From: Escherichia phage vB_EcoM-RPN226
Reading direction: 5' to 3' (one strand)
Sequence record: OL770073.2
DNA length: 64,000 bases
The position numbers were made by a program, and so were the translations under genes. Below the pieces are notes generated by a model. It saw only the letters and a program-made list of their open reading frames with translations. It had not been told where the DNA came from and did not search any database. Positions 10,822-16,275 of this stretch are shown here, piece by piece; positions within the stretch are counted from its first letter, which is position 1; each line of letters opens with the position of its first letter.

Positions 10822-11399
10822 AAGCGAGTACAGTACTTCAAATTGCATATTTAGTATCACAAGAATCAAAATGTTGCTCCTGGAAGGTAGGAGCAGTAAT
10901 TGAAAAGAATGGACGTATTATTTCTACTGGATATAATGGTTCACCTGCAGGTGGTGTGAACTGCTGTGATTATGCTGCTGAGCAAGGTTGGTTGCTGAAT
11001 AAGCCTAAACATACTATCATTCAAGGTCATAAGCCTGAATGTGTATCGTTTGGTTCAACTGATCGTTTTGTCTTGGCGAAAGAACACCGTAGCGCTCACT
11101 CTGAATGGTCGTCTAAAAATGAAATTCATGCTGAACTAAATGCGATTTTGTTTGCTGCACGAAACGGTTCTTCAATTGAAGGTGCTACTATGTATGTAAC
11201 ACTTTCTCCTTGCCCAGATTGTGCAAAAGCGATAGCTCAATCTGGTATTAAAAAGCTGGTTTATTGCGAAACATACGATAAAAATAAACCTGGCTGGGAT
11301 GATATTCTGCGAAATGCAGGTATTGAAGTGTTTAATGTTCCTAAGAAAAACTTGAATAAGTTAAATTGGGAAAATATCAACGAATTCTGTGGTGAATAA
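10818..11399 (+). CDS. cd: dCMP deaminase
   Basis: 193 aa; zinc-binding HAELNAI and PCxxC deaminase motifs. Confidence 0.9.
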   Translation: MKASTVLQIAYLVSQESKCCSWKVGAVIEKNGRIISTGYNGSPAGGVNCCDYAAEQGWLLNKPKHTIIQGHKPECVSFGSTDRFVLAKEHRSAHSEWSSKNEIHAELNAILFAARNGSSIEGATMYVTLSPCPDCAKAIAQSGIKKLVYCETYDKNKPGWDDILRNAGIEVFNVPKKNLNKLNWENINEFCGE

Positions 11400-11635
11400 T
11401 GAAATTTCGTTTGGTACAGCTCACAGCAATTAGTTCTTATTCTAACGAGAACATTTCATTTGCTGTAGAGTATAAGAAGTATTTTTTCTCTAAATGGAAG
11501 CAGTATTATAAGTCAAACTGGGTTTGTATTGATAGACCGTATAGTTGGAAATCTGATTTAGAAAAATGCCAAAAATTGCTTTCCACTCTTAAAGAACGTG
11601 GAACAACTCATATTAAAACTGTGATAGGTAAATAA
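11399..11635 (+). CDS. hypothetical protein (31.2-like)
   Basis: 78-aa ORF. Confidence 0.45.
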   Translation: MKFRLVQLTAISSYSNENISFAVEYKKYFFSKWKQYYKSNWVCIDRPYSWKSDLEKCQKLLSTLKERGTTHIKTVIGK

Positions 11636-11944
11636 ATGAAACTGACGACTGAACAAAAAGTAGCAATTCGTGAAATTTTGAAAACTAAATTGTCCATGGG
11701 TATTTCAAATGTAGTTTTTGAAAAGTCTGATGGTACTATTCGTACTATGAAAGGCACTCGTGATGCAGACTTTATGCCAACCATGCAAACTGGTAAATTG
11801 ACTGAATCTGCTCGGAAAGAATCTACTGATATGGTTCCAGTATTTGATGTTGAGCTTGGCATGTGGCGAGGTTTTTCTATTGACAAATTGATTTCCGTTA
11901 ATGGTATGAAAGTTGAGCATTTGCTTCAATTTATTGGTAAATAA
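11636..11944 (+). CDS. hypothetical protein (31.1-like)
   Basis: 102-aa ORF. Confidence 0.45.
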   Translation: MKLTTEQKVAIREILKTKLSMGISNVVFEKSDGTIRTMKGTRDADFMPTMQTGKLTESARKESTDMVPVFDVELGMWRGFSIDKLISVNGMKVEHLLQFIGK

Positions 11945-11945
11945 A

Positions 11946-11970
11946 TGCTTTAAGAATTATTTGTTATTAT
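11946..11970 (+). promoter_or_regulatory. MotA-dependent middle promoter (TGCTTTA box, 12-nt spacer, TATTAT) upstream of gene 31
   Basis: AAATGCTTTAAGAATTATTTGTTATTAT about 30 nt before the gene 31 start. Confidence 0.45.
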
Positions 11971-12000
11971 TAATTCATCTGTTAACAAAAAGGAAAAATG

Positions 12001-12336
12001 ATGTCTGAAGTACAACAGCTACCAATTCGTGCTGTCGGTGAATATGTTATTTTAGTTTCTGAACCTGCACAAGCCGGTGATGAAGAAGTTACAGAATCAG
12101 GACTTATTATCGGTAAACGTGTTCAAGGTGAAGTTCCTGAACTGTGTGTAGTTCACTCTGTTGGTCCTGATGTTCCTGAAGGTTTCTGCGAAGTTGGTGA
12201 TTTGACTTCTCTTCCAGTTGGTCAAATTCGAAACGTTCCGCATCCTTTTGTAGCTCTGGGTCTTAAGCAGCCAAAAGAAATTAAACAAAAATTCGTTACC
12301 TGTCACTATAAAGCTATTCCGTGTCTTTATAAGTGA
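12001..12336 (+). CDS. 31: co-chaperonin gp31 (GroES-like, capsid folding)
   Basis: 111 aa from [18 protein letters not shown]; matches T4 gp31. Confidence 0.88.
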
Positions 12337-12346
12337 TATAAATAAT

Positions 12347-12354
12347 AATATGAA
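12347..12354 (+). promoter_or_regulatory. T4 late promoter TATAAATA upstream of rIII
   Basis: exact TATAAATA on the plus strand. Confidence 0.4.
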
Positions 12355-12483
12355 TTGGGTGTCGGAATAATAAGTTAACCGAACAATTCTATGTGGTAGT
12401 CTACAACTGAGAGATCTGTCGAAAGAAGATGAAATTCAGAAGAACGTGACTACCGAGTTTTAATCTCTAACGAGAATTTTTAA

Positions 12484-12732
12484 ATGATTAAACAATTACA
12501 ACACGCTCTTGAACTGCAACGAAACGCATGGAATAATGGTCACGAAAACTATGGCGCATCTATTGATGTTGAAGCCGAAGCTCTTGAAATCCTGCGTTAT
12601 TTCAAACATCTGAATCCTGCTCAAACTGCACTAGCTGCTGAGCTTCAGGAAAAAGATGAACTTAAATATGCTAAGCCTCTGGCTTCTGCTGCACGAAAAG
12701 CAGTTCGTCACTTTGTGGTAACACTGAAGTAA
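12484..12732 (+). CDS. rIII: rIII lysis-inhibition accessory protein
   Basis: 82 aa; MIKQLQHALELQRNAWNNGHENYG matches T4 RIII. Confidence 0.85.
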   Translation: MIKQLQHALELQRNAWNNGHENYGASIDVEAEALEILRYFKHLNPAQTALAAELQEKDELKYAKPLASAARKAVRHFVVTLK

Positions 12733-13130
12733 TTTATTGGAGATTCACTGCCTTAGTGTGAGCTAAAATCGAGGAGCCGTCGAACTGTCTGATTAATGAT
12801 TTGCGAATCATTATAGTTTTAAGACCCCGGCAGTTTTACGGTGTACCTCTTGAATGTTATTCTTATAGCGGCAAGTGCATGCTACCCCGAGGTGATGGCC
12901 AATCGGGAGTACGCCTCAAGTCCTATATATCCATCAGTATATATCTTATCCTCGAGAAATCGAACCCGGAACCTTTAAGCTAACGGTGTGCAACAGATAA
13001 GAGCTATAAGGTATGATGACGGGTTTATGGTTATCCTGGTCGTTAAATATTCAAAAACCTATGTTCCCCTTGAGGGCTTGCGCAGGCAATGCCAATAAGT
13101 CCTGCATTTTCATTTAAAAGAGAATTTATA

Positions 13131-13307
13131 ATGGCAAAACAAGCTAAAGCAAAGAAAGCAGTTGAAAAGAAAGTTGGTGATTCTAAACGCGCTGGTTACA
13201 AGCGTGGGTCGAACTCTCGTATCAATCAAACTGTTGAGAAGATCATGCGCCGAGCACGTGCGGTTCTTCGAGATGATGCTTCTCGTTTTGGTAAGCAGAA
13301 AGCATAA
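13131..13307 (+). CDS. small lysine/arginine-rich protein (30.9-like)
   Basis: 58-aa ORF from MAKQAKAKKA, followed by a strong terminator. Confidence 0.5.
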   Translation: MAKQAKAKKAVEKKVGDSKRAGYKRGSNSRINQTVEKIMRRARAVLRDDASRFGKQKA

Positions 13308-13312
13308 GTTAA

Positions 13313-13337
13313 GGACTCCTTCGGGAGTCCTTTTTTA
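13313..13337 (+). terminator. rho-independent terminator GGACTCC-TTCG-GGAGTCC plus T6
   Basis: perfect 7-bp GC-rich stem, tetraloop, TTTTTT. Confidence 0.65.
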
Positions 13338-13418
13338 TTTTCCAAAGATTTGCATAAAGTTGTTTACAGTATAGTTCCTTTGTGATAGTATTATCTTACA
13401 CAAACAAAGGAGAATAAA

Positions 13419-13679
13419 ATGAAAACGATTAATCTGAACGCCACAGTTAAAACTAAATGCTTCAATGGTAAATATGATGAAACTATGTGGTTCTTAATGG
13501 CAGTTGAAGGTGATATTATTGAAGTAGCGATCCAAAACAGGGGCTTTCGTGATGCATTACAAGCCTCGAAAGGAAAAGTTTTGAAGCACAGCATGGCTAG
13601 TTGTCTAACAAAAGATGATACAATACTAACCGAAGCTGAATTTATTGATGTGTTAAACCTATTAAGAGACTCTCTATGA
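13419..13679 (+). CDS. hypothetical protein
   Basis: 86-aa ORF with GGAGAA RBS. Confidence 0.5.
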   Translation: MKTINLNATVKTKCFNGKYDETMWFLMAVEGDIIEVAIQNRGFRDALQASKGKVLKHSMASCLTKDDTILTEAEFIDVLNLLRDSL

Positions 13680-14548
13680 AGCCAACTATTTTAACTGATA
13701 TTGATGGAGTATGTTTAAGCTGGCAATCAGGCCTTCCTTATTTTGCTCAGAAATATAATCTTCCGTTAGAACATATTTTAAAAATGATCCAAGATGAGAA
13801 ATTTATTTCTCCAGGTAAACTCTTTAATTGTGATGAAGAACTTGGCGTCAAGTTAATTGAAAAATATAATCGATCAGATTTTATTCGTTACTTGTCTCCA
13901 TATAAAGATGCTCTGTGTGTAATTAACAAATTAAAAGAAGATTATAATTTTGTAGCTGTTACAGCACTGGGTGATTCTATTGACGCTCTGTTGAATCGTC
14001 AATTTAATTTGAATGCTCTTTTTCCTGGTGCCTTTTCAGAAGTACTGATGTGTGGTCATGATTCTTCAAAAGAAGAGTTGTTCAAAAAGGCAAAAGAGAA
14101 ATATAACGTAATTTGTTATATTGACGATCTCGCTCACCACTGCGATCACGCGAGTGAAATATTAAATGTTCCAGTTTATTGGATGGCTCGAGGAGAGCGT
14201 GACAGTATTCCAAAAACTGCACAGCGAGTTTATACATGGAATGATGTAGAAAATAAGCTTTTTTCGCCGAAGGAAAATAAAGAAAGTTTTGATAGTGAAA
14301 AAGCTATAAAAGATGTAATTGAGAAGATGGTTAAAAACGATTCTTTTCCTTGGAACACTACCTGGAGAACACCTGGATTTAATCCGTATAATCCATATTA
14401 TACACATCCATATAATCCATATAATCCATATTATACACACCCGTATCATATGAATCCATTCCATACGTGGAGTTATACTAAGCCTGGTGATGCAGGGTAT
14501 TTTAATAGATTTACTAGTGGTGATAATATTTTCCAAGGAGCATTCTAA
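13676..14548 (+). CDS. HAD-like nucleotidase-domain protein with C-terminal Tyr/Pro/Asn-rich tandem repeats
   Basis: 290 aa; N-terminal ILTDIDGVCL (DxDGV HAD motif I); C-terminal NPYNPYYTHPY repeated twice. Confidence 0.6.
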   Translation: MKPTILTDIDGVCLSWQSGLPYFAQKYNLPLEHILKMIQDEKFISPGKLFNCDEELGVKLIEKYNRSDFIRYLSPYKDALCVINKLKEDYNFVAVTALGDSIDALLNRQFNLNALFPGAFSEVLMCGHDSSKEELFKKAKEKYNVICYIDDLAHHCDHASEILNVPVYWMARGERDSIPKTAQRVYTWNDVENKLFSPKENKESFDSEKAIKDVIEKMVKNDSFPWNTTWRTPGFNPYNPYYTHPYNPYNPYYTHPYHMNPFHTWSYTKPGDAGYFNRFTSGDNIFQGAF

Positions 14549-14814
14549 TGTTTGTCGTTCACACTATTTATGAAAATGAAGGTAATACTACACGTGATTA
14601 CGGTCACGTAAATCAATTTTTTAGATGCAATCCAGAATTCCGAGCTCAAAAAGACGAACGAATTTTTAAAAAAATGTGTAGAGCAAGGTTTCATTTACGT
14701 CAAGCACTGGATGCAAGGAAATAAAGTTAGAACTACATATCATAAGTCTTTGCCTGAGCTTAATGATGAATTGATTTATAATAGAGCTGTAAACCAAACC
14801 TTGAAGGATGAGTA

Positions 14815-16275
14815 ATGATTCTTAAAATTCTGAATGAAATAGCATCTATTGGTTCAACTAAGCAGAAGCAAGCAATTCTTGAAAAGAATAAAGATAATGA
14901 ATTGCTTAAACGAGTATATCGTCTGACTTATTCTCGTGGGTTACAGTATTATATCAAGAAATGGCCTAAACCTGGTATTGCTACCCAGAGTTTTGGAATG
15001 TTGACTATTACCGATATGCTTGACTTCATTGAATTCACGTTAGCTACTCGGAAATTAACTGGCAATGCAGCAATTGAGGAATTAACTGGATATATCACCG
15101 ATGGTAAAAAGGATGATGTTGAAGTTTTGCGTCGAGTTATGATGCGAGACCTTGAATGCGGTGCTTCAGTATCTATTGCAAACAAAGTTTGGCCAGGTTT
15201 AATTCCTGAACAACCTCAAATGCTGGCAAGTTCTTATGATGAAAAAGGCATTAGTAAGAATATCAAGTTTCCAGCTTTTGCGCAGTTAAAAGCAGATGGA
15301 GCTCGGTGTTTTGCTGAAGTACGAGGCGATGAATTAGATGATGTTCGTCTTTTATCGCGAGCTGGTAATGAATATCTAGGATTAGATCTTCTTAAGGAAG
15401 AGTTAATCAAAATGACTGCTGAAGCCCGCCAGATTCATCCAGAAGGTGTGTTAATTGATGGTGAATTGGTATACCATGAGCAAGTTAAAAAGGAACCAGA
15501 AGGCCTAGATTTTCTTTTTGACACTCCTGAAATTAGCAAAGCTAAAGAATTCGCCGAAGTAGCGGAATCTCGTACTGCTTCTAATGGAATCGCCAATAAA
15601 TCCTTAAAAGGAACCATTTCCGAAAAAGAAGCCAAATGCATGAAGTTTCAGGTCTGGGATTATGTCCCGTTGGTAGAAATATACGGTCTTCCGGCGTTTC
15701 GTTTAAAATATGATGTACGTTTTTCTAAACTAGAACAAATGACATCAGGATATGATAAAGTAATTTTAATTGAAAACCAGGTAGTAAATAACCTAGATGA
15801 AGCTAAGGTAATTTATAAAAAGTATATTGACCAAGGTCTTGAAGGTATTATTCTCAAAAATACCGATGGATTGTGGGAAAATGCTCGTTCAAAAAATCTC
15901 TATAAATTTAAAGAAGTAATTGATGTTGATTTAAAAATTGTAGGAATTTATCCTCACCGTAAAGACCCTACTAAAGCAGGTGGATTTATTCTTGAATCAG
16001 AGTGCGGAAAAATTAAAGTAAATGCAGGTTCAGGCTTAAAAGATAAAGCCGGTGTAAAATCACATGAACTTGACCGTACTCGCATTATGGAAAACCAAAA
16101 TTATTATATTGGAAAAATTCTAGAGTGCGAATGCAATGGTTGGTTAAAATCTGATGGCCGCACTGATTACGTTAAATTATTTCTTCCAATTGCGATTCGT
16201 TTACGTGAAGATAAAACTAAAGCCAATACATTCGAGGATGTATTTGGTGATTTTCATGAGGTAACTGGTCTATGA
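14815..16275 (+). CDS. 30: ATP-dependent DNA ligase (gene 30)
   Basis: 486/487 aa; matches T4 DNA ligase including the KADGAR adenylation motif. Confidence 0.93.
   Translation: MILKILNEIASIGSTKQKQAILEKNKDNELLKRVYRLTYSRGLQYYIKKWPKPGIATQSFGMLTITDMLDFIEFTLATRKLTGNAAIEELTGYITDGKKDDVEVLRRVMMRDLECGASVSIANKVWPGLIPEQPQMLASSYDEKGISKNIKFPAFAQLKADGARCFAEVRGDELDDVRLLSRAGNEYLGLDLLKEELIKMTAEARQIHPEGVLIDGELVYHEQVKKEPEGLDFLFDTPEISKAKEFAEVAESRTASNGIANKSLKGTISEKEAKCMKFQVWDYVPLVEIYGLPAFRLKYDVRFSKLEQMTSGYDKVILIENQVVNNLDEAKVIYKKYIDQGLEGIILKNTDGLWENARSKNLYKFKEVIDVDLKIVGIYPHRKDPTKAGGFILESECGKIKVNAGSGLKDKAGVKSHELDRTRIMENQNYYIGKILECECNGWLKSDGRTDYVKLFLPIAIRLREDKTKANTFEDVFGDFHEVTGL

Follow-up and report, generated by a model that had tools for sequence, protein, structure and literature searches.

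Covariation supports a 145-nt four-way-junction RNA, a candidate new family, among shuffled RNA modules in the rIII-30.9 spacer of T4-like phages

The subject of this analysis is the non-coding interval between genes rIII and 30.9 of Escherichia phage vB_EcoM-RPN226 (sequence record OL770073.2), located in a window of 64,000 nucleotides (nt), i.e., the whole stretch of DNA that was analysed, read as one strand, 5' to 3'. The window is a T4-like (Tequatrovirus) segment, and its positions 11000-15000 are 97-98% identical to phages such as phiC600P9, vB_EcoM_P8 and TB004. The upstream gene rIII (12484-12732, + strand; 82 amino acids (aa); PHROG 1457, E=4.7e-44) encodes the lysis inhibition accessory protein and is annotated likewise in T4 and relatives; the downstream gene 30.9 (13132-13307, + strand), identified from the T4 annotation, encodes a very basic 58-aa protein that matched no Pfam or PHROG family. 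With rIII ending at 12732 and the ATG of 30.9, preceded by the Shine-Dalgarno sequence AAAGAG (13117-13122), at 13132, the gap spans 12733-13131 (399 bp); these borders had been drawn correctly in an earlier reading made from the sequence alone (hereafter, the sequence-only reading). That reading had proposed a small RNA or a regulatory or structured element in the interval, and the proposal is strongly supported: several RNA structures backed by covariation were found, the chief among them a 145-nt four-way-junction RNA (denoted M2; 12864-13008, + strand) that was delineated using covariation, a covariance model and the alignment with T4. In our assessment, M2 is very probably a real structured RNA under selection.

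The arms of M2 meet in a four-way junction with zero linker nucleotides, and the RNA comprises 44 base pairs in 7-8 helices. The closing helix P1 (12865-12869/13003-13007, + strand) consists of 5 bp that are free in sequence, with 5/5 pairs covarying, and in the window copy it can be extended to 9 bp (12861-12869/13003-13011). P2 (12870-12872/12921-12923, + strand; GGC/GCC) is followed by a conserved internal loop, AAGUGCAU opposite CUCAAG, and then by the long, bulged hairpin P3; P4 forms a hairpin of 7 bp. P5 encloses two stems, P5a and P5b; the joiner is GCAACA. The GNRA-capped P5a, UCGA-GAAA-UCGA, has 4 bp, all four covarying, and a cap that is usually GAAA or GUAA, and P5b carries an invariant 15-nt loop, GAACCUUUAAGCUAA. 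Most of the approximately 55 invariant columns of M2 fall in the internal loop, in the pairs next to the junction, in the P5b loop or in the GCAACA joiner. On the opposite strand, the 63 G-U cells of the M2 alignment would become A-C mismatches and the GNRA loops would read as UUUC-type loops; therefore, the + strand is the RNA. A pseudoknot joining the P5b loop to the internal loop of P2/P3 is unsupported, the columns in question being near-invariant or non-covarying. The window copy of M2 has a private G-to-T change at 12921 (CUCAAGUCC versus CUCAAGGCC elsewhere) that breaks the third P2 pair. The nearest relatives match this copy at 99.4% over 157 nt, which amounts to one difference, perhaps the one at 12921; the change may be neutral or may stem from an error in sequencing.

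The covariation was assessed using 21, later 27, distinct M2 sequences drawn from GenBank phages, IMG/VR and metagenomes. RNAalifold predicted 44 pairs, 27 of which show compensatory changes. Counted over the MAFFT alignment, 97.7% of the cells are paired and 27/44 pairs are compensatory; the covariance-model alignment of the 27 distinct sequences, which includes Tegunavirus, raises these values to 98.4% and 32/44. The latter alignment is fitted to the model, and the independent MAFFT alignment agrees with it. None of 500 shuffles matched the observed pairing values. When the 3' partners were slid by 1-3 columns, a control that, compared to the shuffles, takes phylogeny into account, only 25-42% of the cells were paired and 2-9 pairs were compensatory. 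Conservation points in the same direction: in 7 of 8 genera, M2 is 75-90% identical to the window copy and rIII is 65-72% identical, the exception being Tegunavirus (65% for M2 versus 69% for rIII), and the spacer surrounding M2 is unalignable across the compared genera.

A blastn search with positions 12860-13016 retrieved 407 phage records with identities from 99% down to 79%; rIII is present in 1116 records. The hosts of the M2-bearing phages include Escherichia, Shigella, Klebsiella, Enterobacter, Citrobacter, Yersinia, Salmonella, Serratia, Raoultella, Erwinia and Edwardsiella. M2 is kept in at least 11 phage genera, and nearly always lies directly after rIII, as in Tequatro-, Mosig-, Moon-, Karam-, Kanagawa-, Marfa-, Muldoon-, Roskilde- and Tegunavirus and in Klebsiella T4-like phages. 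In all rIII-locus records that were inspected, namely, CIP9 and PEi20 (Kanagawavirus), Cronus (Roskildevirus), COW86c, Muldoon, AmPh_EK29 (Marfavirus), PG7 (Karamvirus) and fHe-Yen9-01 (Tegunavirus), M2 is located directly 3' of rIII and 5' of the 30.9 homologue, on the coding strand. The Slopekvirus copy, so diverged that blastn detects only 32 nt of it, occupies another locus, the 3' untranslated region (UTR) of the uvsY operon; it sits after uvsY.-2, in a unit that converges on uvsW.1 and uvsW, and there is no gene next on its strand. The covariance model scores 167 bits at the locus studied here and finds one copy in the window. In T4, the model found nothing in positions 1-50 kb, the tRNA region, the uvsY-uvsW region or the rIII region, the rest of that genome having been covered by blastn only. 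Nor did the model detect M2 near rIII in Proteus phage phiP4-3, Acinetobacter phage PhT2-v2, Serratia phage X20, VR7 (Gaprivervirus) or AV112 (Mosigvirus). The presence or absence of M2 is polymorphic, with sharp edges, within both Tequatrovirus and Mosigvirus.

Comparison to T4 bears directly on another proposal of the sequence-only reading, namely, that the interval is a deletion scar relative to T4, and on the T4 alignment that it had suggested as a check. At the same place, T4 has 244 bp of non-coding DNA versus 399 bp in the window. The left part of the interval (to 12857) and the right part (from 13011) align with T4 at 98-99% identity, whereas the 153 nt in between (12858-13010), which contain M2, have no T4 counterpart. 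Because the window is 153 bases longer than T4 here, the deletion-scar explanation fails at this spot, and the alignment shows a surplus of 153 bases between rIII and 30.9. The interval is not a degraded remnant of T4 30.x genes either, given that T4 itself is non-coding at this position and that the window is larger. The loss of 30.x genes is real and lies downstream, outside the interval: the open reading frame (ORF) 13419-13679 (+ strand, 86 aa) is a chimera, in which residues 1-40 correspond to Pfam Phage_30_8 and residues 32-84 to the C-terminus of Phage_30_3, and between 11000 and 15000 close relatives have about 1.67 kb more DNA (5675 versus 4001 bp). This 30.8/30.3 fusion marks the actual 30.x deletion relative to T4.

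The interval had also been called ORF-free, which holds in the biological and not in the literal sense. Mechanical ORFs of 34-60 aa do overlap it (12801-12983, 60 aa, TTG start; 12841-12978, 45 aa, GTG start; 12988-13098; 13013-13117; 13089-13307), and those within the interval are non-conserved. In 0 of 21 homologues is a frame open through the central 142-151 nt on either strand, and the homologues of M2 measure 142, 145, 146, 149 and 151 nt, i.e., they differ by 1-6 nt that are not multiples of three. A small protein-coding gene at M2 is thus ruled out by frames closed in 21/21 homologues and by the non-triplet indels. A 34-aa ORF with an ATG start, MMTGLWLSWSLNIQKPMFPLRACAGNANKSCIFI (13013-13117, + strand), overlaps the modules M3 to M5 described below; the same ORF is present in T4, and it has no Pfam match. 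It is probably not a gene, since in other genera this segment behaves as a set of covarying RNA helices; coding confined to Tequatrovirus is conceivable. The description of the interval as GC-rich needs similar qualification: the GC content of 0.43-0.44 (200-bp windows), and of 0.46 for the core RNA, exceeds that of most neighbouring windows (0.31-0.39), but the excess is modest and does not rise above rIII (0.42-0.43).

We compared the interval to known RNA families, as the sequence-only reading had advised. Rfam 15 (4227 covariance models, which take in every catalogued ribozyme, riboswitch and phage RNA) gave no match within 12733-13131 at E<=10, in a 4-kb search and in a 399-nt search, and none over the M2-homologous loci of five other genera. 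Such an outcome makes the RNA uncatalogued, and not thereby unstructured. Nearby weak Rfam matches, Atu_C8 and Phe_leader at 13263-13346, are merely the terminator hairpin after 30.9. ARAGORN found 0 tRNA or tmRNA genes in the whole window. A consensus scan for promoters and terminators yielded none in 12733-13131, with T4 middle and late promoter motifs checked by eye only, and the sequences 5' of P1 differ among genera. An independent small RNA gene with its own promoter and terminator was rejected, neither element being found in the interval. The conserved 3' motif of M2 had 0 matches in one genome each from 185,579 bacterial and archaeal species, blastn of M2 against 5,426 complete E. coli genomes gave no match, and scans of IMG/VR and metagenomes returned close relatives only, plus 7 chance pattern matches discarded with the covariance model. 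Within the 64-kb window, a complement to the invariant P5b loop occurs at the locus itself only. Strings resembling 16S rRNA (GGGAGUACG..CAAGG, noticed by eye) were dropped as non-collinear, in line with the negative E. coli search. In the literature, which was searched with exact sequence strings included, no description of this RNA was found. Taken together, these comparisons suggest that M2 represents a previously uncatalogued RNA family with no detectable relative; the claim of novelty pertains to the family, not to the mechanism. The family was apparently overlooked, in what is the best-studied group of bacterial viruses, because the type phage T4 has none.

Several known systems resemble M2 in part. 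The T4 RNAs rnaC and rnaD (species 1 and 2) of the tRNA cluster are also structured non-coding T-even RNAs that are co-transcribed with their neighbours; they are approximately 120-140 nt long and dispensable, and their function is still unknown. However, the M2 model had no match in T4 68-76 kb, which includes rnaC, rnaD and the tRNAs; rnaC ends in a tRNA-like T-arm, GGGTTCGAATCCCGG, and M2 has no such arm; and the loci differ. Homology of M2 to rnaC or rnaD was accordingly rejected; T4 has both of them but not M2. The natural hairpin ribozyme, the four-way form of twister-sister, and the SAM-I and cobalamin riboswitches share with M2 a linker-free, or nearly so, four-way junction closed by P1. 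In terms of architecture, these ribozymes and aptamers, like M2, have conserved internal loops on adjacent arms that could dock, and a peripheral GNRA loop. They differ from M2 in their conserved sequences; furthermore, M2 has no expression platform and no Rfam match at E<=10. Another parallel concerns mobility. Arbiol, Comeau and Krisch reportedly described, in 2010, PeSLs (promoter-early plus stem-loop), mobile regulatory cassettes in the intergenic regions of T4-type phages. M2 likewise is a small non-coding module shuffled among such intergenic regions, but PeSLs combine a simple hairpin with a promoter and act on transcription, whereas M2 is promoterless and has 44 bp in 7-8 helices with invariant loops.

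Representing the interval as a series of modules in the 5' to 3' direction, we define five further elements around M2, two of them upstream and three downstream in the window. Module X (12740-12769, + strand), recognized by eye from flank sequences, is a conserved, short GGUGAUUCGCUACCUUAGUGCGGCUAGAAAAU-like element bearing the small hairpin CACU-GCCUU-AGUG (12746-12758), and a homologue lies directly 5' of M2 in Jiaoda-, Kanagawa- and Tegunavirus. Module M1 (12771-12849, + strand), which is present in T4 too, is a long interrupted stem (GAGG/CCUC, GCCGU/ACGGU, GAACUGUC/GGCAGUUU). It encloses the inverted repeat quoted in the sequence-only reading, which is confirmed, one base off the position given there, as the hairpin UAAUGAUU-UGCG-AAUCAUUA at 12794-12813 (arms 12794-12801 and 12806-12813, loop TGCG in the DNA). 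In relatives this repeat still pairs after two compensatory changes, UAAUGAUU/AAUCAUUA becoming UAUCGAUU/AAUCGAUA. Given 9 sequences from Tequatro-, Mosig- and Gaprivervirus, RNAalifold predicted 25 pairs for M1 as a whole; despite the close kinship, 6 are compensatory, and the minimum free energy fold of the window sequence reproduces the module.

Module M3 (13012-13063, + strand), also present in T4, is a putative H-type pseudoknot that was recognized from the flanks and a hand-made structural alignment of 18 sequences. Stem S1 pairs GACGGG (13018-13023) with CCUGGUC (13035-13041), stem S2 pairs GGUU (13029-13032) with AACC (13056-13059), and loop 3 is A-rich, GUUAAAUAUUCAAA. In S1, the three outer pairs are paired in 18/18 sequences and two of them are variable, with three pair types each (AU/GC/UA and CG/UA/GC), the outer triplets being GAC/GUC, GGC/GCC, GUU/AAC, GUG/CAC and GUC/GAC. 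In S2, two core pairs are paired in 18/18 sequences, one as GC in 12 and AU in 6, the other an invariant GC, and in some genera the stem as a whole is swapped with complementarity kept (GGUU/AACC, AGUAGUU/AACUACU, UUGUGAG/CUCACAA, GUUGGUU/AACCAAC). Because the count was manual, with no slid control, we grade the pseudoknot as probable, not proven. The leader of T-even gene 32 has an H-type pseudoknot in the untranslated part of the mRNA, and M3 resembles it in having two covarying stems in pseudoknot order and a long A-rich loop 3; the differences are locus and sequence, the position of M3, which is not 5' of an autoregulated gene, and the lack of an Rfam match.

Module M4 (13064-13080, + strand), defined from alignments and flanks, comprises a short hairpin and its conserved flanks, (G)UNCCC-N4-6-GGG(G)CUUG, and accompanies M2 in most genera, Slopekvirus included; its motif RGGGCTTG is unenriched in the window (2 found, 1.8 expected). 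The last segment, module M5 with the 30.9 initiation region (13082-13125, + strand), was assigned by eye and consists of GCAGG (13082-13086) paired with CCUGC (13101-13105), followed by a U-rich run; the consensus scan called no terminator at M5. A second hairpin, AUUUUC (13106-13111) with GAGAAU (13120-13125), is predicted by the centroid fold and would sequester the Shine-Dalgarno sequence of 30.9. Its counterpart, UCUCC-AAAA-UGGAAGA, lies ahead of 30.9 in Jiaoda-, Karam-, Kanagawa- and Muldoon-type phages, which suggests conserved translational control of this very basic protein.

The order of the modules is not constant. It is X-M1-M2-M3-M4-M5 in the window, M3-X-M2-M4 in Jiaoda-, Marfa- and Kanagawavirus, and X-M2-M3 in Tegunavirus; M3, which is 3' of M2 here, is also 5' of M2 in Muldoonvirus, and M4 is 5' of M2 in Erwinia phage COW86c, where the order M4-M2-M3 compares with M4-M3 in Serratia phage X20. 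In VR7 and AV112, the exact site of M2 is occupied by an unrelated filler of about 52 nt, AUUUUGUACUACCCCGCGUCAGAAAAAGGUUAUCUGUCUAAGUCGUGGUUGG (approximately 1264-1318 and 1244-1298 of the retrieved rIII-region stretches, respectively), and the end of this filler duplicates the 5' half of the M3 pseudoknot in its X20 form; the site is a hotspot for module exchange. Another recurring hairpin module, perfect and 11 bp long in Cronus, CAUGCGUACAC-CGU-GUGUACGCAUG followed by GGGUAACGUAUGAUG, is found 5' of M3; it lies just 3' of M2 in Cronus and directly after the rIII stop codon in two other records. As module order varies among genera, M2 is a discrete cassette, bounded by P1, and one that has been gained, lost or moved several times. 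The interval is best described as a predicted string of autonomously folding RNA modules with wall-to-wall helices.

Two features downstream of the interval deserve mention as separate observations. Right after 30.9, at 13311-13391 (+ strand), there is a strong intrinsic terminator, AAGGACTCC-TTCG-GGAGTCCTT with a T-run, and after it an early-promoter-like sequence, TTTACA, 17 nt, and TAGTAT with TG; the pair forms a PeSL-like cassette. Further on, the ORF 13676-14548 (+ strand, 290 aa) encodes a C-terminal tandem repeat of the proline- and tyrosine-rich motif NPYNPYYTHPYNPYNPYYTHPYH.

How M2 acts can be proposed in outline. In T4, transcription of rIII starts from early, middle and late promoters (PMC9409239). 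Because M2 has no promoter of its own, it would be made by read-through from the rIII promoters. M2 occurs in an intercistronic spacer and a 3' UTR alike; hence, its function would be independent of the neighbouring genes, and it may act as an RNA in its own right, whether as a stable non-coding species, perhaps a processed one, or as an embedded domain. Through the invariant surface of its loop and junction, it would recognize a protein or a small ligand, and this partner would be conserved across the Enterobacterales hosts or the T-even-type phages. The advantage conferred is likely to be accessory and dispensable, given that T4 and many relatives live without M2. We favour, at close to even chances, the interpretation of M2 as a context-independent RNA that binds a partner or acts in trans.

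Five points weigh against this interpretation. The folding energy of the single sequence is unexceptional (z = -1.5 to -1.6), so that the case for function has to rest on conservation and covariation, not on thermodynamics. The sample consists of 27 distinct sequences of one narrow clade, and the shuffle control ignores phylogeny. High identity across genera could result, in part, from recent horizontal exchange of the cassette and not from constraint on each base. The lack of a complementary loop target in the 64-kb window and of similarity to host sequences leaves no lead to a partner. Finally, both the discrete, stable M2 species and its partner are predictions made from sequence.

Of the alternatives, we consider unlikely, though the best of them, that M2 is a new self-cleaving ribozyme or an RNA-processing element that would cut a polycistronic transcript wherever it is embedded, splitting rIII from 30.9 here and setting the 3' end of the uvsY operon in Slopekvirus. 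A cutting element would work in any context, which fits the observed placement of M2, and other self-cleaving ribozymes are known from phage intergenic regions. The architecture of M2, with two arms bearing conserved internal loops or junctions on the linker-free four-way junction closed by P1, recalls the natural hairpin ribozyme and the four-way twister-sister forms, and the many invariant unpaired nucleotides would fit as well. However, the likeness is architectural only: no Rfam ribozyme model matched the 399 nt at E<=10, M2 is bigger than most self-cleaving classes, and no cleavage site can be named from the sequence.

It is improbable, to our mind, that M2 is a cis-regulatory sensor, i.e., a riboswitch aptamer or a protein-binding operator in the leader of 30.9 and the downstream 30.x and ligase genes, which would control read-through or translation via the hairpins that follow M2. 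M2 does lie upstream of 30.9 on the same strand in at least 10 genera, riboswitch aptamers typically have a multi-helix junction that is closed by P1 and contains invariant nucleotides, the ribosome-binding site of 30.9 is within the conserved sequestering hairpin, and the 58-aa product of 30.9, being very basic, could bind RNA. The combination of covarying helices (32/44) and approximately 55 invariant positions is a riboswitch feature as well, but is not by itself specific to riboswitches, and a constant 5'-leader position with an adjoining expression platform was not found for M2. The Slopekvirus copy has no same-strand gene downstream; M3 and other modules stand between M2 and 30.9 in some genera and before M2 in others, with no conserved expression platform; no terminator/antiterminator alternative is evident; and both 30.9 and the sequestering hairpin are retained in T4, VR7, AV112 and X20, none of which has M2.

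Passive RNA architecture has a comparably low probability as an account of M2. Under this explanation, the structures would shield the 3' end of rIII or the 5' end of 30.9 from ribonucleases, provide processing sites for RNase III or RNase E, or keep Rho off the spacer. Helices fill the whole interval, M1 is a long, nearly continuous duplex, long duplexes in phage early mRNAs are RNase III substrates, and an untranslated spacer of 244-399 nt would otherwise be a Rho target; for M1, M4 and M5 this account is plausible. It leaves unexplained, however, the invariant nucleotides of M2, which are mainly in loops and junctions, as the loops of passive hairpins drift freely, and M2 is more conserved than rIII in 7 of 8 genera and is kept as a cassette at another locus. 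The weakest explanation, at the level of DNA (a miniature mobile element with terminal inverted repeats, a homing site, a replication origin, or a coding remnant), is very improbable and largely refuted: short inverted repeats (P1) do bound M2, and its presence and absence are sharp-edged in Tequatrovirus and Mosigvirus, but P1 varies by lineage and covaries instead of staying conserved, the helices covary with a strand-specific RNA logic (63 G-U cells and GNRA loops), the T4 junction has no target-site duplications, and a remnant is contradicted by the lack of an open frame or of protein similarity and by an interval longer than that of T4.

M2 bears the marks of catalytic RNAs or of RNAs that bind ligands or proteins: 32 covarying pairs, approximately 55 invariant nucleotides that cluster in loops and junctions, a GNRA loop, and a conservation above that of rIII in most genera. 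A bolder possibility, which we regard as tentative, is that M2 founds a new class of functional RNAs in T-even-type phages, either a self-cleaving ribozyme or a high-affinity aptamer or decoy. If the latter is true, M2 would sequester a host factor or a signalling molecule, e.g., as an RNA-based device for counter-defence or host takeover, and if the new-class reading holds, T4 genetics would have missed M2 for 60 years only because T4 lost the cassette. The natural presence/absence variants in Tequatrovirus and Mosigvirus make the function directly testable by allele swap, and it should be noted that many M2-bearing phages are candidates for therapy. For the T-even phages at large, the spacer between rIII and 30.9, including the 244 bp of T4, appears not as empty DNA but as a mosaic of shuffled RNA modules, and this mosaic would extend to the level of RNA the modular evolution already known for their genomes.

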